From positions 1 to 60,442 of IMG/VR virus record IMGVR_UViG_3300021376_002324: a stretch of DNA of 60,442 bases; one strand, written 5' to 3'. The stretch is from a virus. Its lineage: Duplodnaviria > Caudoviricetes. A model generated the notes under the pieces. It saw nothing but the letters and a program-made list of their open reading frames with translations, had not been told where the DNA came from and did no database searches. Numbering within the stretch: the stretch's first letter is position 1; every line of letters begins with the position of its first letter. Both the position numbers and the translations under genes were made by a program. Of the stretch, positions 37,059 to 55,611 are shown piece after piece.

Positions 37059-37300
37059 TGAGTTTTAAATTATTAAGAGGAGAAGAAACTCCAACATTAA
37101 CGTTATCTCCAACTTTTTATCAACCGAGAAGATTAAATAATGTCGAGTTTTGTTTTCAGTTTGGTGATTGTGAACCCGTAAGTTTTGGTACTGGACCAAA
37201 TGATTTACACATACACATAACCCCAACTGAAAATGGTATTATAACTTTTACAGATAATGATGGAAAAACATTTAAAATTTTTGCGAGAGAGATACAATGA
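37058..37300 (+). CDS. Hypothetical protein
   Basis: 80-aa coupled ORF. Confidence 0.5.
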   Translation: MSFKLLRGEETPTLTLSPTFYQPRRLNNVEFCFQFGDCEPVSFGTGPNDLHIHITPTENGIITFTDNDGKTFKIFAREIQ

Positions 37301-37917
37301 AAATAAGTTTTGCTATTACAGTATGTAATGAATTAACAGAGATTAAAACCCTATTACCATTCATTCTTGATAATAAAAGAGAATGTGATGAGGTAGTGGT
37401 TTTATATGATGAAAAAAACGGAAACGAAGATGTGATATCGTTTCTGAATGATTTTGATAATGGTTCATCAGTAAAAATCCATAGTGATTTATTTGATGAT
37501 GATTTTGCATCATGGAAAAATAAATTAAATTCTTATTGTAATGGTGATTATATTTTTCAATTAGACGCAGATGAAATTATTAGTGAACATTTAATAAAAA
37601 ACTTAAGTGATATCATTTCACTAAACACTGAAGTAGATTTATTTTATGTTCCGAGAAAAAATATCGTCAACGGAATCACGGAAGAACACATAAAAAAATG
37701 GAGATGGAGGGTAAACGAAAGTGGTTGGGTTAATTTTCCAGACTATCAAGGTAGAATATATAAGAAAGGTCTTCATTGGTATGGTAAGGTACACGAAAGA
37801 ATTACTAGCGGTAGGATTTATTCGTTACTTCCACCTGAAGATGAAAAATTTTTTATTACACATATTAAAACAATAAATAAACAAGAAAAACAAAACAACT
37901 ATTATAGTTCTTTATGA
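37297..37917 (+). CDS. GT2 glycosyltransferase
   Basis: ISFAITVCNE, LDADE, PDYQGR, VHE. Confidence 0.85.
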   Translation: MKISFAITVCNELTEIKTLLPFILDNKRECDEVVVLYDEKNGNEDVISFLNDFDNGSSVKIHSDLFDDDFASWKNKLNSYCNGDYIFQLDADEIISEHLIKNLSDIISLNTEVDLFYVPRKNIVNGITEEHIKKWRWRVNESGWVNFPDYQGRIYKKGLHWYGKVHERITSGRIYSLLPPEDEKFFITHIKTINKQEKQNNYYSSL

Positions 37918-38903
37918 AAATATTAATTACTGGAGTTGCGGGACTTTTAGGTTCAAGGTTGGCGGATTATATAATTGAAAATTATCCAGAAGTAAAGGTT
38001 GTGGGGATGGATGATTTAAGTGGTGGTTATAAGGAAAACGTACACCCAAAAGTAGAATTTTGGCAAATGAATTTGGTTACCCACCCAATTGAGAATTGTT
38101 TTGAGGTTCATAAATTTGATTATGTATATCACTTCGCAGCTTACGCCGCGGAGGGGTTAAGTCCGTTTATAAGAAGTTATAATTATCAAAATAACTTAGT
38201 TTCAACATCGAGAATAGTAAATGAGTGTATTAAAAATGATGTAAAAAGATTAGTATTCACCTCAACTATGGCCGTTTATGGTCACGGTAGTGGAGAAATC
38301 TTTGATGAGGCCCAAATACCAAACCCTATTGATCCTTATGGTATTGCCAAATACGCTTGTGAAATGGATATCAAAGTTGCGGGTGAACAACATGGATTGG
38401 ACTGGTGTATCATTCGTCCACATAATGTTTATGGTATTAAACAAAACATATGGGACAAGTACAGAAATGTTTTGGGTATTTGGATGTATCAACACATGTG
38501 TGGTGAAGCAATGACAATATTTGGTGATGGGGAACAAAAAAGAGCGTTCAGTTATATTGACGATTGTTTAGAGGGTATTTGGAAAGCATCACAAGAACCC
38601 GTATGTTCAAAAGAAATAATCAACTTAGGTGGTACTAAACATTTTACAATTAACGAAGCCAATAATATACTACGTGAAGTAATTCGTGACGGTGAAACAG
38701 TGTACAAAGAACAAAGACATGAAGTAAAAACCGCAATACCAACTTGGTCAAAGTCTGTCAGACTCTTGGGTTATGAGGATAAAACATCGTTATATGACGG
38801 ACTTAAGGTGATGTGGGAATGGGTACAGAAACAACCAAAAAGAGATAGATTCGTGTGGGGCAAATACGAACTTGATAAGGGAATATATAGTTTTTGGAAA
38901 TAA
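37914..38903 (+). CDS. NAD-dependent sugar epimerase/dehydratase
   Basis: TGVAGLLG, YGIAK, HNVYG, GDGEQKRAF. Confidence 0.9.
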   Translation: MKILITGVAGLLGSRLADYIIENYPEVKVVGMDDLSGGYKENVHPKVEFWQMNLVTHPIENCFEVHKFDYVYHFAAYAAEGLSPFIRSYNYQNNLVSTSRIVNECIKNDVKRLVFTSTMAVYGHGSGEIFDEAQIPNPIDPYGIAKYACEMDIKVAGEQHGLDWCIIRPHNVYGIKQNIWDKYRNVLGIWMYQHMCGEAMTIFGDGEQKRAFSYIDDCLEGIWKASQEPVCSKEIINLGGTKHFTINEANNILREVIRDGETVYKEQRHEVKTAIPTWSKSVRLLGYEDKTSLYDGLKVMWEWVQKQPKRDRFVWGKYELDKGIYSFWK

Positions 38904-38904
38904 T

Positions 38905-39486
38905 ATGAGTGAAATAGAATTTATTATACCGACATATCAAAGAACAGATCATTTAATGTGTATTATGTGTTCAATAAAATCACAAACATCAAGTAGATGG
39001 AAAATACATGTGATTGCTGATTGCCCTCCTGAAGGTACATTAGATAAAGTAATTGATTATTTTAAAGGTGATAATAGAATTAAATTTACAATATTACCTC
39101 AAAGGTATAATGATTGGGGGCACACCCCAAGGAATTATGGATTAGATGAAGCAACTGAAGATTGGGTTGTTATGACAGGTGAAGACAATTATTATGCGCC
39201 GACCTTTGTTGAAGAAATGTTGTTACAAGCAACACCAAACGTACATTTTGTTTATTGTAATATGATTCATAATTGGTTACGTTCGGACTACATTGCAATG
39301 TCTTGTGAACCGAAATGGGGTAAAATTGACATGGGTAATTTTATATGCAGAAGAGAATATGCTAAAGAAATTAAATTAGATGTTACTATGATACAAGCCG
39401 ATGGTAAATTTGTTGATGAATACATTAGAAAGTACCCAACAAAAACCGCCAAAAAAGTAGATAAGTTTTTATACGTTCACAATTAA
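38905..39486 (+). CDS. GT2 glycosyltransferase
   Basis: FIIPTYQR, PRNYG, GEDNY; start refined to 38905. Confidence 0.8.
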   Translation: MSEIEFIIPTYQRTDHLMCIMCSIKSQTSSRWKIHVIADCPPEGTLDKVIDYFKGDNRIKFTILPQRYNDWGHTPRNYGLDEATEDWVVMTGEDNYYAPTFVEEMLLQATPNVHFVYCNMIHNWLRSDYIAMSCEPKWGKIDMGNFICRREYAKEIKLDVTMIQADGKFVDEYIRKYPTKTAKKVDKFLYVHN

Positions 39487-39490
39487 ATAT

Positions 39491-40252
39491 ATGAATAAAT
39501 TAATATTATCAACAGGTTCAGATTTTAATTACTTAAATAGAATAGTACCTTATTTAAATTCTATTAGTCAAAATTCAAACTTTGATAAAAATATTTTAAT
39601 TTTTGTTGAGGATAATCAACATATTAATAATGGTTTAAATAGACTAGAAATAAATAAAATTAACATAAAAGACATTCAGTGTTTGAATTCTAATAAATGT
39701 ATACAACATGGTGATTTTTTAAATTCAATTGAGTTTGATAAATCGACAGATGAATCAGACGTGATTTTTTTTACCGACGGTGACATAATACTACAAAGAG
39801 GTCTAACAGAGGATGAGATTAATTTCTATAAAAATTTTAAAGATGGTGACGTATCAGTTGGATACAACTCATCTCCAACCGATACTTTATTTGATGAATC
39901 AAACAGGTTAGGTAGAACAGGATTTATTTCCTCTGAAATTAGAACAGATGGTTGGGATAAGATTAAAATTTATAATACCGGTGTTCTTTGTATGAATAAG
40001 AAAACTTGGAGAGAATTATTGAAAAGATATGTTAGATTATTTTCACAAATAGATAAAATGTTTTATCACTACGCAAAACAACAGTGGTTAATATCGTATA
40101 TTATCGGCACAGATACAAATTTTAATGTTATTGAGATGCCATATGAAATACATAATCATAGACATTATCCAAGTCCTCAAGGTACACACCAAGATAAAGA
40201 CGGGATGGTTTATTTTAACGATAAAAAAGTTTTATTTAAACACAAATGGTAG
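39491..40252 (+). CDS. GT-A-like glycosyltransferase
   Basis: FFTDGDI (DxD), YNTGV, QQW. Confidence 0.55.
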   Translation: MNKLILSTGSDFNYLNRIVPYLNSISQNSNFDKNILIFVEDNQHINNGLNRLEINKINIKDIQCLNSNKCIQHGDFLNSIEFDKSTDESDVIFFTDGDIILQRGLTEDEINFYKNFKDGDVSVGYNSSPTDTLFDESNRLGRTGFISSEIRTDGWDKIKIYNTGVLCMNKKTWRELLKRYVRLFSQIDKMFYHYAKQQWLISYIIGTDTNFNVIEMPYEIHNHRHYPSPQGTHQDKDGMVYFNDKKVLFKHKW

Positions 40253-40282
40253 AATTATTTAGAAAAATAATTGAACTTTAAT

Positions 40283-41368
40283 ATGTATGATTATTTAATA
40301 GTTGGTTCAGGATTTTTTGGTTCAATATGTGCATATGAACTAACCAAATCGGGAAAGAAAGTTTTGGTTATTGATTCTCGTAATCATATCGGAGGTAATT
40401 GTTACACAGAAAACAGAGACGGTATAAACCTACAAGTATATGGTGCACACATCTTCCATACATCAAACAAAGAAGTGTGGGATTGGATCAATCAATTTGC
40501 TGAGTTCAATACTTACCGACATCATGTTTTGGCAAAATATGATGAAGAAATATATTCTTTACCATTTAGTATGTTCACCTTCAATAAATTGTGGGGAGTG
40601 AATTATCCACAAGAGGCTCAAGAGATTATCAAAGAACAATCATCCAAGATTGATGAACCGACAAACTTAGAAGAACAATCAATAAAACTAGTCGGTAAAG
40701 ATGTATATGAAAAACTCATCAAAGGTTATACTCACAAACAATGGATGAAAGACCCAAAAGAATTACCAAAGGAAATCATTAAGAGATTACCAGTTCGTTT
40801 CATATGGGATAACAATTACTTTTTTGACAAGTATCAAGGAATACCAATTGGTGGATATACACAAATATTTGAGAGGTTGTTAGAAGGTATTGATGTTCAA
40901 CTGAACACAGATTACTTTAACAGTAATTTACCTCCTCATAATAAACTAATCTTCACTGGTCCGATTGATAAATTCTTTGGTTACAAGTATGGTAAGTTAG
41001 AATACAAGACGGTTAGATTTGAACATAAACATTTAAATCAATCAAACTATCAAGGTGTTCCTGTAATGAATTATACAAATTATAATATTCCATATACAAG
41101 AATAATCGAACATAAACACTTTGAGGGTGTTGATACGAATACAACATGGATTACTCACGAATATCCAACAGAATATGTTGCAGATGTTACTGATCCATAC
41201 TATCCCGTTAATGATATGGAAAATAATAAAATGTTTTCCAAATATAAAGAAGAGGCCGAGAAAGTAAAGGAATGTGTATTATTTGGTGGTCGTTTGGGCG
41301 AATACAAATACTACGATATGCATCAAGTTGTTGAATCAGCACTTAAATTTGTAAAAGAAAAATTATAA
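40283..41368 (+). CDS. glf: UDP-galactopyranose mutase
   Basis: GSGFFG, IGGNCY, YGAHIFHT, RLPVR, GRLGEYKYYDM. Confidence 0.95.
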   Translation: MYDYLIVGSGFFGSICAYELTKSGKKVLVIDSRNHIGGNCYTENRDGINLQVYGAHIFHTSNKEVWDWINQFAEFNTYRHHVLAKYDEEIYSLPFSMFTFNKLWGVNYPQEAQEIIKEQSSKIDEPTNLEEQSIKLVGKDVYEKLIKGYTHKQWMKDPKELPKEIIKRLPVRFIWDNNYFFDKYQGIPIGGYTQIFERLLEGIDVQLNTDYFNSNLPPHNKLIFTGPIDKFFGYKYGKLEYKTVRFEHKHLNQSNYQGVPVMNYTNYNIPYTRIIEHKHFEGVDTNTTWITHEYPTEYVADVTDPYYPVNDMENNKMFSKYKEEAEKVKECVLFGGRLGEYKYYDMHQVVESALKFVKEKL

Positions 41369-41369
41369 A

Positions 41370-42482
41370 ATGGATATAACATTTGTATTGGCGGTATACA
41401 ATAAATTAGACTTAACTAAATCATGTTATGATAGAGTTCGAAACTTATATCCCGAAGTACCGTTGGTAATAAGTAGTGGTGGTTCTACCGATGGTACTAA
41501 AGAGTGGTTAGAAGAAATATCAAATACCGATGATTATATAACAATATTTCACGACGACCAAAGACTTACTTTTTCAGACACATATAATACAGGTATTAAA
41601 TTAGTTGACACCGAAAAACTAGTTTTAATACACAATGATATGATTATTGGTGAAGGTTTTTTAGAATCAATAGAAAGACTCTCAACACCTGATACATTGT
41701 TATCATACACAACTATTGAGCCCCCAATATTCAGAGGACATCAAAGACCCGGTAAAGTTATATTAGACTTTGGAAGTGGTTTTGATAATTTTGACTATGA
41801 CGGATTTAATCGTTATGTTTCTGAAAATAATAAAATCGACCACGTATACGATGGTGCGGTTTTCTTTATGTCAGGTTACAAGGAAATGTTTGTTGACGTT
41901 GGGGGTTTTGATGGTTTTAGTTTTGTACCTGCATTTTGTGAAGACGACGATTTTTTAATTCGTACCAAACTAAAAGGGTATAAACTTAAAACATGTACTT
42001 CTGCAATAACATATCATTTTGTTTCTCAGACATCAAGATTTAGTGAAGAATATAAAAATGACAGACATAGAATTGAAGTTTCTTCGAATAGAAATTTCGT
42101 TAGAAAATGGGGAATACCAATTAATGCATTCAATGAATTAAGATACTGGGAGGACGAAATTTTTTCTTTTAAATCATTTACAATTGGTTTAATAACAAGA
42201 AATAAAAATCGTCTATTTGAGGTTGAGCCTTTTTTTGATAAAATAGATTTGGGGGATATTCCATTTGATTATGTGGAAAATGAACAAAAAAATACAAGAT
42301 ATGATTTAAGAAGTAAATTTACTCTTACAGATACGGTAGATGTTATTATAATAGAAGTAGAACCTTTTACAAATGAAGACATAATAAATCTTCAGAAGCT
42401 TAGACTTTCTATTCCCTATTATGAACCTGGTGAATATCATATCGGAAACATGTTAATAGAAATAAAAAAGGGACTCAATTGA
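41370..42482 (+). CDS. GT2 glycosyltransferase
   Basis: VLAVYN, GSTDGT, HNDM, EDDDF. Confidence 0.85.
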   Translation: MDITFVLAVYNKLDLTKSCYDRVRNLYPEVPLVISSGGSTDGTKEWLEEISNTDDYITIFHDDQRLTFSDTYNTGIKLVDTEKLVLIHNDMIIGEGFLESIERLSTPDTLLSYTTIEPPIFRGHQRPGKVILDFGSGFDNFDYDGFNRYVSENNKIDHVYDGAVFFMSGYKEMFVDVGGFDGFSFVPAFCEDDDFLIRTKLKGYKLKTCTSAITYHFVSQTSRFSEEYKNDRHRIEVSSNRNFVRKWGIPINAFNELRYWEDEIFSFKSFTIGLITRNKNRLFEVEPFFDKIDLGDIPFDYVENEQKNTRYDLRSKFTLTDTVDVIIIEVEPFTNEDIINLQKLRLSIPYYEPGEYHIGNMLIEIKKGLN

Positions 42483-42497
42483 ATCCCTTTTCTTTTT
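42466..42497. terminator. Bidirectional terminator between convergent genes
   Basis: AAAAGGGACTC-AATT-GAATCCCTTTT imperfect stem with A/T runs on both sides. Confidence 0.55.
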
Positions 42498-45168
42498 ATT
42501 TATTTTTTAATTCGTCTATTTGTTTTTGTTGTTCTTTAACACATTCGATAAGAAGTGCAACTAACCTTTCGTATTTAACAGCTTTGAATCCGTTTTCTCT
42601 TGTTGTAACAATTTCAGGTAAGATTGATTCAATCTCTTGTGCAATAACCCCGATATCATGTCCTTCATTCTCATGTATTCCTTCCATTGGAATCCAATCA
42701 TATTCATAACCACCAATTTGATTTAATTTTTCTAAAGGATTAGAAATTGGTGTTACATTTTCTTTAAGTCTTGAGTCGGAACCATAGAACGCGATTACAT
42801 CATTTGTTGCTCTGATTAAACCTGTCGTTGATGGTGCTGCGGTGCCAACACCTAAAGCGTTGAATTGAACATTCGAGTTGGTCGCCACAGCTTGTCCAAT
42901 TGAAATTGTTACTGCCCCTGTTGCAGCACTTACACTAATACCCGTTCCTGCAACCGCCGATGTCACACCTGCGTTATTTAATGTTACCGATGACCCTAAT
43001 GCAACTGATCCTCCACCACTCATACCTGTACCAGCCGTAACTGTTAAAGATGAGTTAGCTAATTTACTGTTTGTTACAGATGCATCAACTAATTGAGAAG
43101 CGTTGATGGTTTTATTTGTTAAAGTTTGTGATGTGGTTCTTAAAACAATATCATCCTCAGAACCTAAAGGACCCGCAATCCACTTATCATTTGTTGTATC
43201 CCAAAGGAAAGAACCCGATGTTAAAGTTGATGCTGTAGCATCTCTTACAACTAAACCGGCATTTGTTGCTCCAGAACCATTCAATTGAATGATATTATCT
43301 GCGATATTAACAGTTGTTGAGTTTACAGTGGTTTGTGTACCTGAAACCACTAGATTACCACCAATTGTTACCGTCGTACCGTCATCTGTAATTGAAGAGT
43401 TACCTACAGTTGTTGATGAAGTAAATTTAACTATTGTGTTATTAGTTCCAGATGTTGTAATTGATGTACCAGAACTTCCTGATGTTCCACTACTTCCACT
43501 AGAACCTGAACTACCCGAGCTTCCTGAAGAACCACTTGAACCTGAACTACCTGATGTTCCACTACTTCCACTTGAACCAGATGTTCCACTACTTCCACTA
43601 GAACCTGAACTACCCGAGCTTCCTGAAGAACCACTAGAACCTGAACTACCTGATGTTCCACTACTTCCACTAGAACCTGAACTACCTGATGTTCCACTAC
43701 TTCCACTAGAACCTGAACTACCTGATGTTCCACTACTTCCACTAGAACCTGAACTTCCTGATGTTCCACTACTTCCTGAAGAACCACTAGAACCTGATGT
43801 TCCTGAAGAACCACTAGAACCTGAAGAACCACTAGAACCTGATGTCCCGCTACTTCCTGAAGATCCAGATGTACCTGAAGAACCACTACTTCCTGAACTA
43901 CCTGAACTACCTGAACTACCTGAAGTACCAGATGAACCGCTAGAACCACTTGAACCCGATGTTCCACTACTTCCTGAACTACCTGAAGTACCAGATGAAC
44001 CTGATGAACCTGAACTTCCAGAACTTCCCGAACTACCTGAAGTACCAGATGAACCGGAACTACCTGAAGTGCCAGATGAACCGGAAGACCCAGATGTTCC
44101 ACTCGTTCCAGATGTACCAGCGGCACTTAACCATGTGTTTCCATTATATCTATAAATGTTAGTATCTGTTGTATTATAAAATAATTGACCAGTAATAGAT
44201 CCCAAAGCCTCACCCGTTGTAGATGCGGTCGGAATTACCATTGATCCCGTTACTCTAAGTGAACCTGTAAATTGATGTACATCCGCTTGATCATTACCAA
44301 ATGCGGTAGAACCACTTGCGAATTGAACGGTCATATTAGTTACTGATGAACTAACAATATATTGTTGTGCTGTTAAGTTTCCTAAAACAGTTAAATTATT
44401 ACTTATTGTTTGACTTCCTGTTAAAGATAATGTCGTACCATCAAATCTTAAATTAGACTCAACTGTTGCGTTTGGTGATGAACCATTTAATGTAATTATA
44501 CCATTATCGGTTTCGCCAACCATAGTAACCGTACCTGAACTACCACTGGAACCTGACGATCCTGAAGTACCTGAAGTTCCTGAAGAACCAGATGAGCCCG
44601 ATGAGCCACTAGAACCTGATGTACCAGAAGAACCTGAAGAACCTGAACTTCCTGATGAACCAGATGAACCCGAAGTACCAGATGTTCCTGATGTACCTGA
44701 AGTTCCTGAACTTCCACTTGACCCACTAGAACCTGATGTACCAGATGAGCCCGATGAGCCACTAGAACCTGATGTACCAGAAGAACCTGAAGTTCCAGAT
44801 GAACCACTTGAACCTGAACTACCTGATGAACCCGAACTTCCTGAAGTACCACTTGTTCCCGATGTTGCCGCGGTATATGATGTTCCGTTTATAAATAAAC
44901 TACCAGTAACGGCCAAAGATCCATCGATTTGTTGGTCACCAACAAAATCATTACTGCCGGTAATTGCGAATTCTAATGAATCCTTACCGTCTAATAGTTG
45001 TGAATTTAACGCTACTGAAGCGGTTTGTGCGTAAGATGAACTTATAGCGTTTGAGGTGGTACCACTGATTGTCGCGTTAATCGTACCTAATACTGTAAGG
45101 TCACCCTGAATGTGACCTGAACCTGAAACTGATAATGATCCGGTTATGTGTGGTTCAAATACTTTCAT
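42496..45168 (-). CDS. Tail fibre protein with Gly-Ser/Thr-Ser triplet tracts and C-terminal intramolecular chaperone (peptidase S74)
   Basis: SDSRLKEN, GVIAQE, LLIECVKEQQKQIDEL; LTNKTI fibre motif; TATTTAT at 45192-45198. Confidence 0.88.
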   Translation of the reverse strand: MKVFEPHITGSLSVSGSGHIQGDLTVLGTINATISGTTSNAISSSYAQTASVALNSQLLDGKDSLEFAITGSNDFVGDQQIDGSLAVTGSLFINGTSYTAATSGTSGTSGSSGSSGSSGSSGSSGTSGSSGTSGSSGSSGSSGTSGSSGSSGSSGTSGTSGTSGTSGSSGSSGSSGSSGSSGTSGSSGSSGSSGSSGTSGTSGSSGSSGSSGTVTMVGETDNGIITLNGSSPNATVESNLRFDGTTLSLTGSQTISNNLTVLGNLTAQQYIVSSSVTNMTVQFASGSTAFGNDQADVHQFTGSLRVTGSMVIPTASTTGEALGSITGQLFYNTTDTNIYRYNGNTWLSAAGTSGTSGTSGSSGSSGTSGSSGSSGTSGSSGSSGSSGSSGSSGTSGSSGSSGTSGSSGSSGSSGTSGSSGSSGSSGSSGSSGTSGSSGSSGTSGSSGSSGSSGSSGTSGSSGSSGSSGTSGSSGSSGSSGTSGSSGSSGSSGTSGSSGSSGSSGTSGSSGSSGSSGSSGSSGSSGSSGTSGSSGSSGTSGSSGSSGSSGSSGSSGSSGSSGTSGSSGTSITTSGTNNTIVKFTSSTTVGNSSITDDGTTVTIGGNLVVSGTQTTVNSTTVNIADNIIQLNGSGATNAGLVVRDATASTLTSGSFLWDTTNDKWIAGPLGSEDDIVLRTTSQTLTNKTINASQLVDASVTNSKLANSSLTVTAGTGMSGGGSVALGSSVTLNNAGVTSAVAGTGISVSAATGAVTISIGQAVATNSNVQFNALGVGTAAPSTTGLIRATNDVIAFYGSDSRLKENVTPISNPLEKLNQIGGYEYDWIPMEGIHENEGHDIGVIAQEIESILPEIVTTRENGFKAVKYERLVALLIECVKEQQKQIDELKNK
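43463..44118 (-). repeat. (G-S/T-S)n coding repeat tract 2 (about 70 triplets)
   Basis: 9-bp periodicity; near-exact 36-bp tandem units at 43631-43774. Confidence 0.9.
44531..44866 (-). repeat. (G-S/T-S)n coding repeat tract 1 (about 37 triplets)
   Basis: Uninterrupted SGT/SGS triplets in the translation. Confidence 0.9.
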
Positions 45169-45235
45169 TTAGATAAATTATTTTATATCTTATAAATACT
45201 TGGTATTCGTATTCAAGTATTAAATATTTGAAACT

Positions 45236-47350
45236 TTAGAATAATTTTTCTATTTTACCAATAACTTCCTCGGGTGTAATCTCTTTTGAACACTCAAATT
45301 GTCTATCCGTGTTCTCGTGTATTGGGCACCAATTCCAATTACCAGCATCGAATTTATGTGTCTGCCAACAACTATTACAGACATTTTTGTTGATTATCCT
45401 ATTGATATTTTCAAATGGTTCTAAATACACATCAGTAAATCCAGATATTAAAACCACTGGTATACCGGAAGACCAAGCTAGCCAACTCAAACCACTACTA
45501 ATCCCTATAAAAAAATGTGATTCCTGTAGAACTTTCAAGACTTCCTTAGTTGAACTTGGTGGTTGTGTCTTTATTCCTTTGGGGTGTTTATTTCCCATAT
45601 ATCCATCCTCTTCTCTTGACAATAATCTCACTTCATATCCCTTAGATTTAATAAAGTCAACAACCTTTTGCCAACCTTCAGGATTATTCCAATACTTACA
45701 TTGTGCCGTGGAATGAATAGCAATACAAACCCTTTTCTTTTTATGTCCACCTAATTTTGGGACATTTGGTATAATTTCTTTATAATCTAAACCTAATATA
45801 TCCGACGCAATTTTTTGTAGTGGTTCTTGAAGTGGGTTATATGGATGTCTTTCATAATCAACTTGATTTCCATTATAAAATAAACCAAGTCTATACATAC
45901 CATATATATTATTAACTTGTGAGCCTGGATTTACAAATTCTATTTCGGGATATTCCTTTTCAAACAACTCATTATGAAAAGTAGAACAAACTACTTTACA
46001 GTCTCTTTGTTTCCTAAATTCTTCGACATAAGGAATAAATGCTAAAGTATCACCTAACGATTTACTTTCAAAAGAAATGTAAAACCTATTGTTTTTTGGG
46101 TTAAATTCATGGTATCCATTGTAGTCATTATCAATACCTATAATTCTAATCCCCCAATCTATATAATATTTAAAGGAGGGTTTGCACCATTGATTACTAC
46201 TTAATATTGTTTGGTAAACTACATTCCCATTTTTTTTATTTATAAATTGAACATTGTATTTGTATGGTAAATCATCTAATATTTCAACAAATGGTCCGTC
46301 AACAAAGTGGATATTAAACCTTCTATTTGATTGTTTATTTTTCCACTCTAAAATATTTTTTCTTCTAAAATCATATAAATCTTCATTAAGTCGTTGGGTG
46401 AATATTTCTATTCCTTGATAAAAAACTCTAACAGTTTCATTTTTTATGTAATCACCTAATAACTCTAAATGATATTCTCCCTTTTTAACGGTATAAAAAA
46501 ACCTTTTATTACCATAGTTCACTTCACATAAGTAATCCTTATCTGCCGGTTTTTCTGAGAATCCAGATATAAAATGAATATATAAATTATTATTATCTAC
46601 CGCAAGATATGTTTGAAATATTGCGCCATTCTTTAGAATACCATTTCTATTCCAAGCAGCATATATATTGAGTTCATTATCGTTAGGGATATACTTACTA
46701 ACAAAAACATTATTTGTAATAGTTTTTAAGGTTTGATAAAAAACCCTTTCTAATTGCCAACCATTTGGTTTATTTTTAAAATATTCCTCCTTTGTGTTAA
46801 TCTTATTTATTAATGAAAGGGCGATATCGGTTCTAATTGAGAAAATGTATGTTGATGAATATGGTTGTGGTTCATTTGTGGATCCCTTCATATATTCATA
46901 TACAACAGCATCATGGCTTCTAATGTATTCCATAAAAGACTGACGATATTGTGTCTCATCGGGTAAGTTATCATATTCCAAAAAATGAATATATTTCTTA
47001 CCTAATTGTTTGGCTAAGTTGAATGCGTTTTTCATAGTTAACCATATCGCATAATCATGATGAAAATCGACTTTATTGAATACCTTATAGTCATTCATTA
47101 TTGTCCATCTATCACTAACAACTTCATATTCTCTAAAATCTTTTTCTAATAGGATGTCATTGTTACTATCATATATGAAATAATCAACCTGTTTTTGAAT
47201 CCTTGGTTTCACGGGGTAATGTCCACATAATATTATTGGGACATTGAAAATTTTTAATCTATCAATTAATTTTAGTAAGGTTTTTTCTTTTTCTTCAGTG
47301 TCTAACCAACAGTCAACAATAAAAATATCTTCATTAAAAGTGTACGCCAT
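45236..47350 (-). CDS. Autotransporter O-heptosyltransferase-like (TibC/Aah type, GT9-like) protein with extra N-terminal domain
   Basis: FNIHFVDGPFVEI, SLGDTLA, KYWNNPEGW, GISSGLSWLAW, VVLISGF, Fe-finger-like CNSCW...WCP...FECSKEI. Confidence 0.75.
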   Translation of the reverse strand: MAYTFNEDIFIVDCWLDTEEKEKTLLKLIDRLKIFNVPIILCGHYPVKPRIQKQVDYFIYDSNNDILLEKDFREYEVVSDRWTIMNDYKVFNKVDFHHDYAIWLTMKNAFNLAKQLGKKYIHFLEYDNLPDETQYRQSFMEYIRSHDAVVYEYMKGSTNEPQPYSSTYIFSIRTDIALSLINKINTKEEYFKNKPNGWQLERVFYQTLKTITNNVFVSKYIPNDNELNIYAAWNRNGILKNGAIFQTYLAVDNNNLYIHFISGFSEKPADKDYLCEVNYGNKRFFYTVKKGEYHLELLGDYIKNETVRVFYQGIEIFTQRLNEDLYDFRRKNILEWKNKQSNRRFNIHFVDGPFVEILDDLPYKYNVQFINKKNGNVVYQTILSSNQWCKPSFKYYIDWGIRIIGIDNDYNGYHEFNPKNNRFYISFESKSLGDTLAFIPYVEEFRKQRDCKVVCSTFHNELFEKEYPEIEFVNPGSQVNNIYGMYRLGLFYNGNQVDYERHPYNPLQEPLQKIASDILGLDYKEIIPNVPKLGGHKKKRVCIAIHSTAQCKYWNNPEGWQKVVDFIKSKGYEVRLLSREEDGYMGNKHPKGIKTQPPSSTKEVLKVLQESHFFIGISSGLSWLAWSSGIPVVLISGFTDVYLEPFENINRIINKNVCNSCWQTHKFDAGNWNWCPIHENTDRQFECSKEITPEEVIGKIEKLF

Positions 47351-48009
47351 TATCTCTTTGTTATAATAATAATTCCATTTAGGAAGTTTATTGATTCAAC
47401 ATCCACCAAACAACCTGGTTGAGTTCTTTTTGATAAATCAATTAACCAATCTTCTCTTCTACCGTGTACATTTGGCACATCAAAATTCATTAATCCTCTA
47501 AAGTTGACATCATCAACTAAAGATTTAAAAACCTCAACACTTGTTGTTGGTTTTAAGTAACCTCCTTCATAATCTTCCCAATACGCCGTTCCACAGTCCT
47601 CTATAATGTAAACACCACCCGACTTTAAACTTGTCCATAGATACTGAAAAGAGTACACGACATGTGAATTTAAATGTGAACCATCGTCTAATATCATATC
47701 AAATGGTCCGTACTCATTTCTAATTTTAGTTAAAAATTCACCATCAGCCTGTGAACCAATCTCAACTTTAATTCTTTCTTCTTCATATTGTTTACATTCA
47801 GGAGTAATGTCAATACCTAAAATATTGGAACGATAAAAATACTCTTTCCATGTCTTTAATGATTTACCCTTTAAGATACCAATCTCTAAAATGTTTAAGT
47901 TATCGTACCTGTTGAATGGTAAATATTTTTCGTACTTCACACAGTAATTGTGAATGTCAGAACTCTTGTCTGTTCCATACGATTGTGCTATTTTGTTTAA
48001 TGTACTCAT
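47350..48009 (-). CDS. Class I SAM-dependent sugar O-methyltransferase (MycE-like)
   Basis: GTDK...HNY, ILEIGI, DDGSH, GGVYIIED. Confidence 0.8.
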   Translation of the reverse strand: MSTLNKIAQSYGTDKSSDIHNYCVKYEKYLPFNRYDNLNILEIGILKGKSLKTWKEYFYRSNILGIDITPECKQYEEERIKVEIGSQADGEFLTKIRNEYGPFDMILDDGSHLNSHVVYSFQYLWTSLKSGGVYIIEDCGTAYWEDYEGGYLKPTTSVEVFKSLVDDVNFRGLMNFDVPNVHGRREDWLIDLSKRTQPGCLVDVESINFLNGIIIITKR

Positions 48010-50732
48010 CTTATAAAATATATCATTTGTAATGCATTATTTGAACCCATAAACATAAGGTAGGAATTAAATCCAAGAATAACCATTCTGTTTATAAGTT
48101 TCTGTCTTAGTTCTTCATCATAATTGAAATGTGAGTGGTGATATTCCATAGAGATTGTTTTTACCTTCATCAAGTTTTCATCACTGATTCCTGATAGAGC
48201 ATAGTGTTCAGCACCCTCGATATCAACCTTTAAAAAATCAATTCTATCAATTATTCCTGTGTCAAATAGATAATCTAATGTGTAAGTTCGTACTTTATAT
48301 GATTCGGAATTCTCTTGTGTTCCAAATAAATTAGATCCACCTAAATGAACACTTTCATATAAATTCATTTCCCCAACTTGATTACTCATCGCAGCGTTAA
48401 ATAAAATTGAATTTGGACCCGCATTTAATGAAAGTAGTTTGAAGTATCTTTTATCGGGTTCAAAAGAAATAACTTTACCTGCACCTTCACTATGAGCCCA
48501 TCTATTGAATACTCCGATGTTACCTCCTAAATCTACAACGATGTCACCTTCGTGTATTGTCTTTTCTCTATTTTTATAATAGTCTCTTAAGTTGTATATT
48601 TCATGAAAGATAGCAGGTGCCCAACCAAATTTTTCAGCGACTTGCATTGTGCTACCCTCATATTCAAATAGATTTTCAAAATTTTCCAACTTATAAACAT
48701 CAGTATAAAAACACTTTGATTTATAAAATGAATTATCTCTTTTCATTTTAATATACTCAATCATTTTATCTGATATTTCTGCGTTCTTGTTGCCGTGAAA
48801 ATAAATGATGTCAGATTTATCTTTTGGAATATATTGATACCCAAAAATTCTATTAAAGTTTTGTGGTCCATCTTCATTCCAAAATTTATAAAACTGATGT
48901 AGAGTTCTATCTATAAATCCTTCATCACCATCATATGATGAAGTATCGAAGTTTGATAATGGTAAATGATTAGTGTACCCATACTTCCATCTCATTGCAT
49001 TATCAATACCCTCGTCGTTCCATAGATATAGTCTTTTATAATCGTTAGGATTTTCTTTCATTATTGTTTCATAATGATTAATTATCTCTTCAAACCATGT
49101 TTTAGAACTATCGTTATAAATGTAGAAACAAACGTGGGCATAAGGATTACCTTTACTTATTCCCCATTCGTTACTTAATTGTTCATTGAACAATTGTGAT
49201 TTTTTACCATTATCGTACATACCAAAAAATTCTTCCTGTACATGTATATCAGACAATGGATATCTACCAACTTTATTAAAATATTTTCTAACTGTATCTA
49301 TATTATGGTTTACAACAACATCACCATCAATCCATATCAGATGTTCGAAACCTTCATTTAAAGATTCGATACAAGCATGTTGTTTCCAATACCACTTATC
49401 GTGTTCAGAAATTTTGGGTGGGTTAATTGTTCTTTTAATAACATTTGGGTAATTAAATGGAACTTCACAATGAACACCATATACTATAATTTTTTGTTCG
49501 GAAAATTCTATTAACGATTGTACTAATTTTTCGATAACGGGCATATATCCAAGATTACCTGTTGTAACAAACGCAAAAGGTTTTTTATTCCTCATTAATA
49601 TTTCGGACGCATCTTTCGCAATCTTATTCCAATTAAAGTTTTTATGAATTTCTTTAGAATCGGATACCGCATTAACCCACATCGCTGTGTTATAGTCATA
49701 TGCATTTCTCATCTTTACTTTTAAGTCATCCCAATCTGGTTCACAATACTCGCCAGGCCATTCTTTGTGTTCGATATTTGCGGGTCTCATTCCTTTTATT
49801 GCCACAGGAACACCTTTATCTTTTGCAAATTGTAATTGTCCACCCCAATCAGAATATATAGAAGGGGTACCACACGCCATCGCTTCAATCAATGGTAGAT
49901 TCCACCCTTCACTTCTTGCACAAGAAACAAATACGTGTGCCGTTTGTAAATATTTTACATACTCTTCTCGAGATGGGAAGTTTAAAAATTTAATATTTTT
50001 TGTGTCAATACCGTAATGTTTAACTCTTTCTTCAGTAGAATTTAATCCATCGTAAGGATATGGATTTTCTACAGATGCAAGTAACTCAACATCATTTGTA
50101 TCTTTAAATTCTTCTGAGAAAGCTTTTAATATTTCTGTGGTCCCTTTTCTATAATCCCATCTTCCAAAATGTACAAATCTAATTTTCTCTCTTTTTGGGA
50201 ATTTTTTAATTGGTTTAAAAGTATTAATATCAACACCTTCGGGAACAATGAATATTTTTTCGGATGGATAACCCTGTTCAACTAAACAATCAAACTGCCA
50301 TTGCGTTGGTACCCATATTTCATCAAAATAAAAAAGTCTTTTGAAAAATTCATCGGGGTATCTGGTTGATTCCCATACATTATATGCAATTTTATAACCT
50401 TCATATTCCTCATAGAAATAGTGGTTATTAGTTTCCATCAAAACGATATGAACGTCAGGTACAAAATCACCTTTGTAATTGTACATTGGTTCGTCTATCC
50501 TACCATTACCATCCGCCTTGTGTAGTGTTTGTAGGATTAACATATCACCAATTTCTTTGGTGAAATAGGATTCACCATCATGTGGACGATTGTTCATACC
50601 CTTCCAACTGTTACCAATTGTTAGGTTTCTGATTTTGACTGTGTGATATTTGTTTAACGCACAAAAAAATGAACGTGCGTGATTGGCGTATCCTGTTGTA
50701 CCAATAAAAGGTGCGTGTCCAAGTATTTTCAT
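48006..50732 (-). CDS. Fusion: GT4 glycosyltransferase + GT-A-like domain + FkbM methyltransferase
   Basis: EGWNLPLIEAMACG; WIDGD; VDLGGNIG, FEP, LKVDIEGAE. Confidence 0.82.
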   Translation of the reverse strand: MKILGHAPFIGTTGYANHARSFFCALNKYHTVKIRNLTIGNSWKGMNNRPHDGESYFTKEIGDMLILQTLHKADGNGRIDEPMYNYKGDFVPDVHIVLMETNNHYFYEEYEGYKIAYNVWESTRYPDEFFKRLFYFDEIWVPTQWQFDCLVEQGYPSEKIFIVPEGVDINTFKPIKKFPKREKIRFVHFGRWDYRKGTTEILKAFSEEFKDTNDVELLASVENPYPYDGLNSTEERVKHYGIDTKNIKFLNFPSREEYVKYLQTAHVFVSCARSEGWNLPLIEAMACGTPSIYSDWGGQLQFAKDKGVPVAIKGMRPANIEHKEWPGEYCEPDWDDLKVKMRNAYDYNTAMWVNAVSDSKEIHKNFNWNKIAKDASEILMRNKKPFAFVTTGNLGYMPVIEKLVQSLIEFSEQKIIVYGVHCEVPFNYPNVIKRTINPPKISEHDKWYWKQHACIESLNEGFEHLIWIDGDVVVNHNIDTVRKYFNKVGRYPLSDIHVQEEFFGMYDNGKKSQLFNEQLSNEWGISKGNPYAHVCFYIYNDSSKTWFEEIINHYETIMKENPNDYKRLYLWNDEGIDNAMRWKYGYTNHLPLSNFDTSSYDGDEGFIDRTLHQFYKFWNEDGPQNFNRIFGYQYIPKDKSDIIYFHGNKNAEISDKMIEYIKMKRDNSFYKSKCFYTDVYKLENFENLFEYEGSTMQVAEKFGWAPAIFHEIYNLRDYYKNREKTIHEGDIVVDLGGNIGVFNRWAHSEGAGKVISFEPDKRYFKLLSLNAGPNSILFNAAMSNQVGEMNLYESVHLGGSNLFGTQENSESYKVRTYTLDYLFDTGIIDRIDFLKVDIEGAEHYALSGISDENLMKVKTISMEYHHSHFNYDEELRQKLINRMVILGFNSYLMFMGSNNALQMIYFIR

Positions 50733-50769
50733 TACTTAAAATATAATGAAAATGTCTTTAAAAATCAAA

Positions 50770-51837
50770 CTAAATTAGGGTTTTTTCTATTGGTAAAAAC
50801 TCGTGTAAATTGTGAAATACGAATGGATCAGTTGCAACTTTTTTAAACTCTCTTAAAAAATAGTTGTGTTCAGGATGTTTCGGGTCCCAAATTTTTAATT
50901 TTTCAAACTGTTCAGGTGTGAAGGTTCCCCAATTATTTATTTTACCATAGAAAACCTTTGTTTTCGTTCCAAATATCTCTTTCATTTTATTAAGAAAGGG
51001 CCCCATTTCTCTATAGTTAGACTTTTGGACTACAAATGATGTTTTTACTTTTCTCATACTTTTGATGGTAGCAATGAATTTAAGGTTAGATATAAGAATA
51101 TCCCAATTACCTCCCAATCTTGTAACCATTTCATATGTTTTCCTTGTTCCCGCATCAATACTAATTTCACAGCTCTTAACATATTTGTGTATGTTCGGCA
51201 TAGAATCCCACATTTCCTTATTCCAAAGACTGGCGTTGGTGTGAAGATGTATTGAATTAAGTTTTGGATATTTCTTTGGGTCGAAGTTCCTAAGGTAATT
51301 TCTGTAAGATACAGATGCAAATGGATCCGCAGTACCCGAACAATAAATCATTTCAATTGAATCCGAAAATGTTTCTTCCATTTCTTCAATTGTAGTGTTT
51401 ATTCTTTTAATTGACGATGAATTAGCAACAATCATATCTACCCTACAGGAAGGACATTTATAGTTACAAGTTCTGTCAAAAGACATTTGTAAAATTGTTG
51501 GTCCATAATCAATCTTTGTTTTTTTCTCGAGTACGTTATCTTTTATATAATCAGGTAAATCTTGAATTCTTTTTATTGGTCCAAAAATATCCATATTATA
51601 GTTCAAAAGTTGTGATAAAAATGGACATTGTTTTTTATCACAAAACCTATAAGATCCGTCCATAACAGACTCCCTTATTTCCATAGCCTCAGTACTATTC
51701 CATAATTCTTTTAATGGTACGTTTCTTGGTAGTTCCTTTTTTAACCAACTCGCACAACACATAAAGTTTCGAGTTTCATGTATTTCTAATGCTTGAAATG
51801 GAACAGTACAAACGTAGTCTTTCAAATCTATAATCAT
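50770..51837 (-). CDS. Radical SAM protein with N-terminal SPASM/Twitch-like Cys domain
   Basis: CNYKCPSC (CxxxCxxC); N-terminal CTVPF...MCC...C...CP. Confidence 0.85.
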   Translation of the reverse strand: MIIDLKDYVCTVPFQALEIHETRNFMCCASWLKKELPRNVPLKELWNSTEAMEIRESVMDGSYRFCDKKQCPFLSQLLNYNMDIFGPIKRIQDLPDYIKDNVLEKKTKIDYGPTILQMSFDRTCNYKCPSCRVDMIVANSSSIKRINTTIEEMEETFSDSIEMIYCSGTADPFASVSYRNYLRNFDPKKYPKLNSIHLHTNASLWNKEMWDSMPNIHKYVKSCEISIDAGTRKTYEMVTRLGGNWDILISNLKFIATIKSMRKVKTSFVVQKSNYREMGPFLNKMKEIFGTKTKVFYGKINNWGTFTPEQFEKLKIWDPKHPEHNYFLREFKKVATDPFVFHNLHEFLPIEKTLI

Positions 51838-52487
51838 ATTAATCCGCTAATTTTTTGATTTATTCTAACCTTTTTATATGGTGAGTTAATCCATTCATCA
51901 ATACATGTTTGATTGTGTGATATTTTTAAATACTCTAATAACTTGTCTAATGTTGGTCTATCTTTTCTAATAAATAGATTTTCATATGTAACCAAAGGAT
52001 AACCCCTTTTTGACATATTTTTTAAAAATTCTGACTCATTCTCTAAGTGTTGGGATATCCCAAAAATTTCCTCTTCGTCCTCTTTTTTCAAATCATAAAA
52101 TTTTTGTTTATGCCAAAGTGGGGATATGGTTCTATTTTTTGATAATTTTAAATGATAGAATAGACTTTCAGCTTGTTTTCTTTTGTCTTCTCTCTCTAAT
52201 ATTATAATTTTATCAAAATACGAATACACCCACACTAAATAATCTTCAAAACATTCAAATGATTCGTATGGGTAATTATCCCTATCTATAAAGGTTTTGA
52301 CTAAAACATCATTCGTATTAATAAATTCTTCTATAGTTTTAGGTTTACTCTCTTTATCAATATTGAGGTAATTAAATGGTTCAAAAAAAAGTTTATGGTT
52401 CTTTTTTTCTTTTGTTAATAAACAATTAATGAGATAAAATAAGGATGTTGATCCACTCCTACCATTGCAAAAAATCACAATTCTCAT
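51834..52487 (-). CDS. Sulfotransferase-like protein (Stf0-like)
   Basis: GRSGSTSL 5'-PSB loop, EPF, R...QAES 3'-PB, YENL. Confidence 0.65.
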   Translation of the reverse strand: MRIVIFCNGRSGSTSLFYLINCLLTKEKKNHKLFFEPFNYLNIDKESKPKTIEEFINTNDVLVKTFIDRDNYPYESFECFEDYLVWVYSYFDKIIILEREDKRKQAESLFYHLKLSKNRTISPLWHKQKFYDLKKEDEEEIFGISQHLENESEFLKNMSKRGYPLVTYENLFIRKDRPTLDKLLEYLKISHNQTCIDEWINSPYKKVRINQKISGLI

Positions 52488-53029
52488 AATAATTTTTTAT
52501 TGGTGTCTGATTTATAATATTTAAAATCAGTATTAGTTATCCAAATATTAAGAGCACATCTGATACCTTCATTAACCGGCATTACACCATGATAAATTTT
52601 ACTACCATCAAATGAAATACATTCACCAATTTCTAATTTATACTTTTCACATTCCTTAATATTTTTTGGTTTTTCTGAAAGTACAAATCTCCCATCAGAA
52701 AAGTTTTTTGATAATACTATGACCGTTGTTAATTGAGAAGTCGAATCTAAATGTAGGTCTAACCACCTTCCGTCGTAATATTTGGTAAGGCTTATGTTAG
52801 AGTCTTTAATATGAAAATTGTTTAAATCAAACCATAATTTAAACTCTCCTGAAATGTATTTTTCTTTTAATTTACTTATGATTTTTTCTTTAAATTCGTC
52901 AACATAAACTCTCTTACAATCCCATGTTTCGGATGAATGATATGAGAATTGTGTTCCATTTTCTTCACAAAATTTAATTATATCATCACATTCCGACTCA
53001 TCAAAAAATTTATTTACTGAAAAATTCAT
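52484..53029 (-). CDS. 2OG-Fe(II) oxygenase
   Basis: HLD...HGV..V.EG.R. Confidence 0.8.
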   Translation of the reverse strand: MNFSVNKFFDESECDDIIKFCEENGTQFSYHSSETWDCKRVYVDEFKEKIISKLKEKYISGEFKLWFDLNNFHIKDSNISLTKYYDGRWLDLHLDSTSQLTTVIVLSKNFSDGRFVLSEKPKNIKECEKYKLEIGECISFDGSKIYHGVMPVNEGIRCALNIWITNTDFKYYKSDTNKKLL

Positions 53030-53862: not shown

Positions 53863-53868
53863 AATTCA

Positions 53869-54009
53869 TTATGAAAGATGTTTTTCCTTTACCTTGTTAA
53901 TAAAACTTTGAAATGCGTTAGAAACCTTTACCTTTAACTCATTTGATAAAGGTACGATAGTCGGTTTAATTGTTTGAATTGGTCTTTCTACTTTTACGTT
54001 GTTTGCCAT
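53869..54009 (-). CDS. Small protein (46 aa) downstream of the Hint-precursor gene
   Basis: Manual translation MANNVKVERPIQTIKPTIVPLSNELKVKVSNAFQSFINKVKEKHLS; fills the gap. Confidence 0.6.
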   Translation of the reverse strand: MANNVKVERPIQTIKPTIVPLSNELKVKVSNAFQSFINKVKEKHLS

Positions 54010-54031
54010 TACTACTTATTTTTAATATTTT

Positions 54032-55522: not shown

Positions 55523-55544
55523 TTTTTAATTTAGTTTTACATTA

Positions 55545-55551
55545 ATAAATA
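55545..55551 (-). promoter_or_regulatory. TATTTAT putative late promoter of the Hint-precursor gene
   Basis: Same motif as upstream of the tail fibre gene. Confidence 0.45.
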
Positions 55552-55611
55552 TAACCAAATATAAAAACTTTCTAAATAGTTTTTTAAATTTTTATATATG
55601 TATATATCTAT

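Follow-up and report, generated by a model that had tools for sequence, protein, structure and literature searches.

A conserved gene pair of TibC/Aah-type glycosyltransferases and proline-free Gly-Ser/Thr-Ser collagen-like proteins, viewed from a phage tail fibre that is probably glycosylated

The window analysed here is the whole 60,442-nucleotide stretch of the IMG/VR virus record IMGVR_UViG_3300021376_002324 (Duplodnaviria; Caudoviricetes; positions 1 to 60,442). Two adjacent genes on its minus strand encode a tail-fibre protein with long collagen-like Gly-X-Y tracts of Ser and Thr (42496–45168, −; 890 residues) and, directly upstream of it, a probable bifunctional glycosyltransferase (45236–47350, −; 704 residues) with a domain of the autotransporter heptosyltransferase (BAHT, TibC/Aah-type) family. 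Genes for enzymes of this kind and for proteins with such tracts form a conserved pair in phages and in bacteria, and comparison of the sequences indicates that the enzyme probably O-glycosylates the G-[S/T]-S tracts, so that the fibre would be made as a glycoprotein. Tract glycosylation is the simplest account because the order of enzyme gene then substrate gene is conserved and known members of the family hyper-glycosylate an adjacent repetitive protein. An initial annotation of the window placed the two open reading frames (ORFs) correctly and guessed a functional link from their single adjacency; that guess now has a recurrent gene pair behind it. Comparison of sequences supports this reading to the limit of what such evidence can show, and the reading is extended here by the probable bifunctional nature of the enzyme, an operon, a split of the enzyme family and bacterial counterparts.

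The fibre polypeptide consists of an N-terminal anchor, a first tract, a middle domain, a second tract, a distal domain and an S74 chaperone. Tract 1 (residues 104–214; 44527–44859, −) contains 37 G-X-Y triplets (24 GSS, 12 GTS and one GTV) and tract 2 (residues 351–569; 43462–44118, −) contains 73 (54 GSS and 19 GTS). Both are uninterrupted, with Gly at every third residue as had been claimed, and they are the sole Gly-X-Y tracts of at least five triplets in the window. Together they comprise 330 residues (187 Ser, 110 Gly, 32 Thr and one Val), with Ser at Y in 109 of the 110 triplets and Ser or Thr at X. The absence of Pro reported by the initial annotation is borne out (0 of 330 residues); Asp, Glu, Lys, Arg and His are also absent, and the tracts hold none of the Pro, hydroxyproline or charged pairs at X and Y that stabilise collagens. 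The earlier figure of about 200 acceptor residues per chain is a fair count of candidates, the tracts having 219 hydroxyl residues. Pfam assigns the fibre to Collagen (PF01391, E 4.3e-46) and to Peptidase_S74 (PF13884, residues 797–854, E 3.8e-17; 62.8 bits against a cut-off of 22; profile positions 1–57 of 58), in agreement with the description of an S74-chaperoned fibre. The S74 intramolecular chaperone (residues 797–890; 42499–42780, −) is the trimerization module flanking the tracts. It starts with SDSRLK at residue 797, which contains the conserved Ser-Asp motif of the domain, and its release by self-cleavage is predicted from the family.

Tail-fibre families of the PHROG collection match the protein (phrog_8745, E 1.1e-48; phrog_5073, E 4.8e-47), and its C-terminus matches the distal subunit of a long tail fibre (PDB entry 6f45, E 3.6e-8). 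The N-terminal domain (residues 1–103; 44860–45168, −), which probably serves in virion attachment, is 34–78% identical in ten of 11 related fibres, among which the other non-repeat modules are shuffled. The middle domain (residues 215–350; 44119–44526, −) is 71–74% identical to a module of two of them (L012/L018), yet is only partly present in the closest relatives. The distal domain (residues 570–796; 42781–43461, −) is the probable receptor-binding part, judging from its position before the S74 chaperone. By these comparisons the fibre is a mosaic, and shuffled middle and distal modules are usual for receptor-binding fibres.

Serine in the tracts is encoded by TCN as well as AGY codons, at X and at Y, and higher-order repeats in the tract DNA are only 61–89% matched, the exceptions being three short arrays of about two copies at 93–100%. 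Because both Ser codon families are used and the DNA repeats are degenerate, the residue pattern is selected at the protein level, and recent DNA expansion was rejected as the origin of the tracts. A wrong-frame artefact was likewise rejected: the PHROG fibre modules and the S74 domain are read in the frame of the tracts, and the strand opposite the tracts reads as nonsense rich in Pro, Glu and Leu. Matches of the fibre in the PDB, to collagens of animals and to the entry 8zxl ('spindle/axial fibril'), stem from the Gly register alone and were set aside as uninformative.

The C-terminal half of the enzyme (residues 349–703; 45242–46306, −) matches the NCBIfam model TIGR04414 (hepto_Aah_TibC) with 288.4 bits against a cut-off of 200, covering model positions 16–374 of 374, and TibC itself (PDB entry 4rap) with an E of 9.7e-54. 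The AlphaFold model of this domain, with a predicted local distance difference test (pLDDT) score of 90.8, has the TibC fold of a flattened N-terminal β-barrel and a GT-B-like catalytic domain. Its template-modelling (TM) score to TibC (4rap/4rb4) is 0.86–0.87 at 32–33% identity, compared with 0.44–0.54 for the next best structures, the lipopolysaccharide (LPS) heptosyltransferases. On sequence and model alike, residues 349–703 are a true member of the TibC/Aah family, for which 2273 proteins were found at E <= 1e-10 in the length range searched. The neighbour had been called TibC/Aah-like as a whole; this stands for residues 349–703 and fails for residues 1–346, which are predicted to form a separate GT-A-fold domain and a β-sandwich. 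What follows the enzyme gene also departs from the family pattern of an AIDA-repeat autotransporter, since no domains other than Collagen and S74 were assigned to the product of the downstream gene.

Residues with roles in catalysis, donor contact and metal binding are known from the structure of TibC (Asp, Thr, Lys, Trp, Arg and Cys; PMC4358343), and we compared them in an alignment of 29 domains. Invariant in all 29 are D434 (the catalytic base, Asp-110 in TibC), K552 (Lys-230, which contacts the β-phosphate), W623 (Trp-305, which contacts heptose O4) and the four iron-finger cysteines C658, C661, C675 and C687 (TibC 339, 342, 358 and 370), a putative iron-binding site; T548 (Thr-226) is nearly so, being found in at least 90% of rows.

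The N-terminal half (residues 1–346) gave no match in Pfam, PHROG or NCBIfam. Its model (pLDDT 86.3) comprises an α/β domain from residue 1 to about 230 (46661–47350, −) and, between the two catalytic domains, a β-sandwich (residues 245–336; 46343–46618, −) whose strands have pLDDT values mostly of 78–96. Foldseek matches the α/β domain to many GT-A enzymes in the PDB with probability 1.00, at target-normalized TM scores of 0.19–0.56 and 8–13% identity; they include the fungal galactofuranosyltransferase GfsA (8yrl, E 3e-6), α-1,3-GalT, the collagen glycosyltransferases LH3 and ColGalT1, and GlcAT-P. GT-A enzymes have a Rossmann-like α/β/α fold with an acidic motif of the DxD type, and in this domain D56, D127 (in an EYD motif) and E201 are invariant in 25 sequences. 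Identity over the half is 61–91% among the 120 matches listed, and all but one of those listed carry a GT9 or methyltransferase Pfam domain; at other loci the GT-A module is found as a separate ORF beside the BAHT gene. The model suggests that the enzyme is a fusion of a GT-A glycosyltransferase fold and a BAHT domain.

The pairing was surveyed with the BAHT domain as query in the viral collection, which yielded 80 loci with up to 10 kb of flank on each side. A tract ORF was defined as one with Pro-free Gly-X-Y of at least 20 triplets and at least 70% Ser plus Thr at X and Y, and the window's thymidylate synthase served as the query for 80 control loci (1.30 Mb versus 1.21 Mb). A tract ORF is present at 33 of the 80 enzyme loci and at none of the 80 control loci. 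Where the enzyme is at least 50% identical to that of the window (27 loci), the tract ORF lies 48–86 nucleotides downstream on the same strand in 18. The other nine comprise two at 2118 nucleotides, two at 4–5 kb upstream, one with no tract ORF and four whose contigs end within 704 nucleotides of the enzyme, two of these last showing the first 7–9 triplets. A second clade of 12 loci, with enzymes of about 1020–1280 residues at 41–46% identity, has the tract ORF 409–1293 nucleotides downstream in 11, and the 12th is cut. Over 39 partner ORFs with 4754 triplets, X is Ser or Thr in 4332 and Y is Ser in 4079 (86%).

In the reverse direction, with the window's fibre as query, 33 loci were obtained, a small sample related to the window's own lineage. 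Tracts occur at 12, four of which hold the enzyme within the flank, and the enzyme is found at none of the 21 loci without a tract. Most of the other eight tract-bearing loci begin at the edge of the contig or of the flank. When four of these contigs were searched whole, the enzyme family was found elsewhere on the contig in three, two of them passing the cut-off. Of the five Ser/Thr Gly-X-Y ORFs in a complete relative of 335,630 bp (G005), one directly follows one of its two BAHT genes; the second BAHT gene stands alone at 286331–287464 and is 49% identical to the window's domain. The tract ORFs in the fibre cluster of this genome (L292, L293) reach 1,634 residues and 211 triplets.

Giant Pro-free Ser/Thr Gly-X-Y ORFs of 3,493–3,618 residues with 1,053–1,141 triplets also occur on other phage contigs (L191:2-10855, L194:107-10585 and L193:108-10585, the last of which reads as two ORFs of 2,024 and 1,621 residues). 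In all three cases another collagen-like ORF comes next, and this one contains Pro (14–15%); on the L194 contig, a BAHT gene lies about 10 kb downstream of the giant ORF.

Bacteria contain counterparts of the pair. A profile scan over one genome per prokaryotic species gave 80 loci, and at ten of them, from Methylococcales, Burkholderiaceae and other Gammaproteobacteria, among others, a Ser/Thr Gly-X-Y ORF lies within 77–894 nucleotides of the enzyme gene. These partners are mostly proteins of 122–330 residues which, as judged by eye, have a signal peptide or lipoprotein-type Cys, then (GTS)n or (GSS)n, and often a terminal run of Asp; they are without a trimerization module. With the tracts masked, none of 13 bacterial tract ORFs resembles the window's fibre, so that the tract is the only feature common to the bacterial partners and the fibre. 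By comparison, AIDA repeats, the classical substrate, were found in 19 of the 26 large proteins tested that are encoded next to other bacterial BAHT genes. In a FastTree phylogeny of 132 domains (non-redundant at 95% identity after removal of 34 near-copies; support values are local), a branch with support 100 divides the rows into a group of 52, of which 19 are AIDA-linked, 33 unclassified and none tract-linked, and a group of 80, of which 39 are tract-linked, 41 unclassified and none AIDA-linked, and a single change on the tree accounts for the two labels. The window's own clade comprises 21 rows, 19 of them tract-linked; the exceptions are L197, with a tract ORF on the same contig 38 kb from the enzyme, and L024, with none within the flanks.

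Small tract proteins of this secreted-looking or lipid-anchored kind flank bacterial BAHT genes, mostly from Gammaproteobacteria metagenome-assembled genomes (MAGs), at L211:9154-10047, L223:6500-6889 and 9243-9869, L244:9154-9774 and 10107-10583, L208:9187-9552 and L213:6829-7791; they may represent a family of collagen-like, glycosylated proteins on bacterial surfaces. Among the bacterial matches to the enzyme, the best (55%) is on L201, a contig of 238,277 bp with 37% G+C filed under a Pseudobdellovibrionaceae MAG and with a tract ORF nearby; the contig may stem from a large phage that was binned with bacterial sequences.

The fibre gene is the last of four co-oriented genes separated by small gaps or overlaps, in the order GT4-FkbM, methyltransferase, GT-A/BAHT and fibre, with overlaps of four bases and one base upstream of the enzyme gene. 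The methyltransferase (47350–48009, −; Methyltransf_24 type, E 8.3e-6; phrog_21658, E 1.7e-30) shares one base with the enzyme gene. The first gene (48006–50732, −) encodes a 908-residue protein with an N-terminal GT4 domain, a region of about residues 385–700 without a Pfam match and an FkbM methyltransferase at residues 734–879. A terminator-like hairpin with a 13-pair stem and a T run (42464–42493, −) directly follows the fibre stop codon and is the sole such site found by a consensus scan of both strands of 42300–51000. Because the scan is simple and shuffled sequences yield 3.4 sites on average against the one found, only the position of the hairpin is suggestive. Beyond it, a converging block of sugar genes (34450–42482, +) encodes GT4, GT4, GT2, a GalE-like epimerase, GT2, an unknown ORF, Glf (UDP-galactopyranose mutase; TIGR00031, 401 bits against a cut-off of 304) and GT2, and its position suggests that it belongs to the fibre pathway. 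In the Microcystis phage Mel-JY01 a single protein of 1226 residues carries GT4, a GT-A-like stretch and a methyltransferase-like stretch and ends in a BAHT domain, 1.7 kb from an ORF full of GTS/GSS triplets. Residues 3–417 of the 908-residue protein are 42% identical to its GT4-containing N-terminus (E 2e-104), and the window's methyltransferase is 33% identical to an internal part (E 3e-26). As all four counterparts are fused in Mel-JY01, the GT4, GT-A, methyltransferase and BAHT activities would belong to one pathway.

The domains, catalytic residues, gene order, pairing and family split described above suggest a scheme for how sugar is transferred, which sugar it is, where and in what order it is added, and whether a helix forms. 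The BAHT domain would add the first sugar to the hydroxyls of Ser, and perhaps Thr, in the tracts, the near-fixed Ser at Y being the obvious acceptor. As for AIDA-I and TibA, this would take place in the cytoplasm, here that of the infected cell, on chains that are still unassembled (PMC4358343). Extension and decoration of this sugar would fall to the GT-A domain, the GT4 encoded upstream and the two methyltransferases, possibly with a contribution from the converging block, in which Glf would supply UDP-galactofuranose; the position of Glf and the faint structural echo of a galactofuranosyltransferase among the Foldseek matches suggest galactofuranose in the glycan. The S74 chaperone would then trimerize the chains. 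The rise of collagen is 0.286 nm per residue, and the tracts, if triple-helical, would be about 32 and 63 nm long and form a stalk free of Pro and charge, with stability, solubility and protease resistance conferred by glycan and not by Pro or salt bridges. For the phage fibre we lean towards a triple helix over an extended mucin-like brush, though not by much; the option of an extended glycosylated rod stays alive because the bacterial partners are without a trimerization module. More broadly, we propose tentatively that a sister branch of the autotransporter heptosyltransferases has adopted a different acceptor, a portable cassette of (Gly-Ser/Thr-Ser)n, and glycosylates it densely at its hydroxyls to give a 'glyco-collagen', a triple helix or rod in which sugars take the place of proline. 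The cassette would be found in the tail fibres of phages, with as many as about 1100 triplets, or in small bacterial proteins that look secreted.

Several observations weigh against tract glycosylation or narrow its reach. The remaining 41 of the 80 viral loci (33–46% identity) have no tract ORF within about 6 kb, and at 14 representative loci the ORFs near such tract-less enzymes contain no 60-residue segment with at least 55% Ser plus Thr. Two control loci hold distant relatives of the enzyme, also without tracts. Given these cases, adjacency is a property of certain clades and not of the whole branch. Among the four tract-bearing contig fragments searched whole, one did not yield the enzyme, and in G005 four of the five tract ORFs lie in a fibre cluster (C1:226475-245421) 46–65 kb from the enzyme genes, so that an enzyme acting on tracts would also have to act in trans. 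The unclassified rows of the tree include truncated loci and neighbours of untyped content, and relatives share labels, so that Fisher-type contrasts of pairing are rough. The BAHT acceptors described so far are Ser residues in strand-loop-strand turns of β-helices and not in Gly-X-Y (PMC4358343). Finally, the enzyme deviates from TibC in two places. V604 occupies the column of Arg-286, which is Val or Ile throughout the window's clade and is retained as Arg in other phage clades and in the TibC-like L081; in TibC this Arg makes a hydrogen bond to adenine N1, which explains the specificity for ADP, and its replacement by Ala abolishes or largely abolishes activity. The β-hairpin thumb, required for the active TibC dodecamer that grips the substrate inside its ring, is present and is four residues shorter in the window's clade, with Tyr-Met at its tip in the columns of Phe-265 and Val-266 (TibC data from PMC4358343).

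The nature of the sugar is affected most. Heptose, transferred from ADP-heptose to Ser, is the family default, and we give it a little less than an even chance here, because the adenine-contacting Arg is Val and genes of the heptose pathway were not found in relatives. In four large relatives there was no gmhA (0 of 4) and no rfaE domain II above the cut-off (0 of 4; one weak match at 93.8 bits), and no window ORF of at least 100 residues matched a nucleotide-heptose family; both results count against heptose. A search for nucleotide-heptose genes near the Mel-JY01 enzyme gave a 'cytidylyltransferase like protein' and neighbours without a Pfam match at E <= 1e-4. A heptose donor would have to come from the host, or the donor may be a different nucleotide sugar; with Arg-286 replaced by Val, it is conceivable that in the window's clade the donor is not an ADP-sugar at all. 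S618 of the window enzyme lies in the column of TibC Pro-300 and Aah Ser-294, the position that sets the choice between D,D- and L,D-heptose (PMC4358343).

Other functions of the gene pair can be set against these data. The enzyme and the sugar genes might act on the host envelope (LPS, capsule or host adhesins) or on another phage component, an unglycosylated fibre adjoining them through a variable host-interaction island. Phage glycosyltransferase islands are usually read as serving DNA or O-antigen modification (PMC7029224 and PMC10202952), GT9 relatives of the enzyme act on LPS, and the 41 tract-less viral loci place the enzyme within enzyme clusters. We nevertheless regard this as unlikely: loci whose enzymes are as little as 50% identical retain the same-strand spacing of 48–86 nucleotides, the pairing is absent from all 80 controls and turns up again in unrelated bacterial settings, tract-linked and AIDA-linked enzymes separate cleanly on the tree, and the enzyme groups with the protein-modifying BAHTs (TM 0.86) and not with LPS heptosyltransferases (TM 0.44–0.54).

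The acceptor could instead lie in the fibre but outside its tracts, the enzyme glycosylating Ser in β-structured non-repeat segments, as TibC does on TibA, and the G-S-S tracts being unglycosylated spacers or recombination-friendly linkers. The known acceptors in β-helix turns (PMC4358343), the 'strand-loop-strand' in the NCBIfam name, the Ser/Thr/Gly-rich, β-looking stretches of the fibre outside the tracts, and the shuffling of the modules between them, as expected if tracts were joints, are all in keeping with such a role. It is made quite improbable by the bacterial partners, which are little more than a signal peptide and a tract and have nothing else in common with the fibre (0 of 13), by the variability of the phage non-repeat domains while the pairing persists, and by Ser at Y in 86% of the 4754 partner triplets, with both Ser codon families used in the window's own fibre. 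A loss of transferase activity in the window's clade, leaving the BAHT domain as a chaperone or scaffold that threads fibre chains while the GT-A domain alone, or nothing, adds sugar, seems very improbable. Such a loss would fit the altered Arg and thumb, since R286A abolishes or largely diminishes TibC activity and the thumb is needed for the dodecamer, and the threading would fit the grip of TibC on its substrate inside the ring (PMC4358343). The invariance of the catalytic Asp, the phosphate-binding Lys, the Trp and the iron finger across 29 domains, with the Thr nearly so, is hard to explain without catalysis, and K606, a clade-specific Lys two residues beyond the lost Arg, could replace it. 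Glycosylation of the tracts by a catalytically active enzyme remains the reading that we prefer.

Gene content assigns the window to a very large phage: it encodes thymidylate synthase, DNA methylases, an M23 peptidase that also has a peptidoglycan-binding domain, numerous 2-oxoglutarate (2OG)-Fe(II) oxygenases and an extended series of sugar enzymes. The contigs most closely related to it in the viral collection measure 181–336 kb, and no near match at the DNA level to positions 40000–60000 was found among 50,697 phage records. The window is AT-rich (G+C 25–37%). Upstream of the sugar genes, on the same strand, is a twitch-type radical S-adenosylmethionine-like protein (50770–51837, −), and further on lie four 2OG-Fe(II) oxygenases (52484–53029, 56660–57283, 59197–59757 and 59758–60327, all −), a GDSL-like hydrolase (53026–53862, −) and a tryptophan halogenase (57947–59245, −; E 1.7e-83). 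This set of tailoring enzymes, spanning 50770–60327 (−), is unusual for a phage. Elsewhere in the window, RmlC (dTDP-4-dehydrorhamnose 3,5-epimerase; 13258–13797) is full-length (200 bits against a cut-off of 156) and 20 kb from the sugar island, and no further rml genes were seen beside it in the window. Of two C-5 cytosine methylase ORFs (21566–22180 and 25292–26269), the former (204 residues) covers only profile positions 1–116 of 324 and may be a truncated or split gene. An ORF at 10311–10700 (129 residues) is essentially the C-terminal helix-turn-helix domain of DnaA (E 4e-20) without the ATPase part, and host-like genes for metabolism and surface functions encode an S-adenosylmethionine decarboxylase-like protein (20196–20621), an IscA-type Fe-S cluster assembly protein (23241–23570) and a 463-residue FG-GAP repeat protein (8876–10267).

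The enzyme family, and the glycosylation of virions and of collagens as principles, are known; the proposed substrate class and the setting are new. One uncultured phage protein is already named 'Glycosyltransferase Aah/TibC' (a UniProt-derived entry in a viral structure library; TM 0.97 to the BAHT model), and JGI labels many relatives of the enzyme with the NCBIfam name. In the open full-text literature, which leaves most subscription journals outside, we found no paper on a phage BAHT or on a heptosylated or otherwise glycosylated tail fibre, nor one on Pro-free Ser/Thr collagen-like tracts or tying Aah/TibC to collagen-like fibres. In PMC4358343 the BAHTs are described as pathogen enzymes whose genes precede those of autotransporters, and the word 'phage' does not occur there.

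If tract glycosylation is correct, the BAHT family would gain a second substrate class and would reach from pathogen adhesins to environmental phages and bacteria. The tracts would be a natural collagen-like helix without proline or charge, a clean system for asking how far glycans alone stabilize a triple helix, and a simple pair of repeat and enzyme for making glycosylated rods. Glycosylation of receptor-binding fibres would also mean that the host range of phages, their stability and their recognition have a further layer, invisible to present genome annotation.

Among known systems, virion glycosylation is reported for mycobacteriophages, in which phage-encoded glycosyltransferases next to structural genes are said to modify virion proteins. 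The targets in these phages of Actinobacteria are reportedly capsid and tail-tube subunits modified by GT2/GT4-type enzymes, with no collagen-like acceptor and no BAHT. A weak PDB match (1wck, E 1.6e-4) relates the fibre to BclA, a surface filament of the Bacillus anthracis exosporium with Thr-rich collagen-like GXT repeats that are heavily O-glycosylated. Both have a microbial collagen-like region, but the window protein is a phage fibre, and BclA repeats contain Pro (GPT) and are served by glycosyltransferases that are not known to be of BAHT type. In an invertebrate cuticle collagen, galactose is reportedly carried by Thr at Y of Gly-Pro-Thr; in contrast, the window's tracts have Ser at Y, Thr at X only and no Pro. 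The general point that O-glycosylation can replace hydroxyproline as a triple-helix stabilizer was made in 'Sweet is stable' (Bann et al., 2000, as cited in PMC3368898). The collagen-like proteins EPclA/B of E. coli O157 prophages are trimeric phage tail-fibre proteins with a Gly-X-Y domain between trimerization modules; their tracts are rich in Pro and charge (GPK, GPQ and GER), melt at 42 °C and are unglycosylated by periodic acid–Schiff staining (PMC3368898). Unlike these, the window's tracts have neither Pro nor charge, so that stabilization of the EPclA/B type is unavailable to them, and by analogy either sugars would stabilize the helix or the tracts would be extended glycosylated rods.

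Close parallels are TibC-TibA and Aah-AIDA-I of E. coli. The fibre enzyme has the family, fold, catalytic Asp, phosphate contacts and iron finger in common with TibC and Aah, and the gene order is the same, enzyme then autotransporter in the E. coli systems (PMC4358343), as borne out for 19 of the 26 bacterial neighbours tested. In either case the enzyme gene immediately precedes that of a long surface protein, repetitive and rich in Ser, whose hyper-glycosylation would take place in the cytoplasm. The window's partner differs in being a Gly-X-Y fibre with an S74 chaperone in place of an AIDA-repeat β-helix with an autotransporter barrel, and the window's enzyme differs in its fusion to a GT-A domain, the change of Arg-286 to Val, the shorter thumb and the phage setting. 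The two kinds of enzyme lie on opposite sides of the deepest well-supported branch of the tree.

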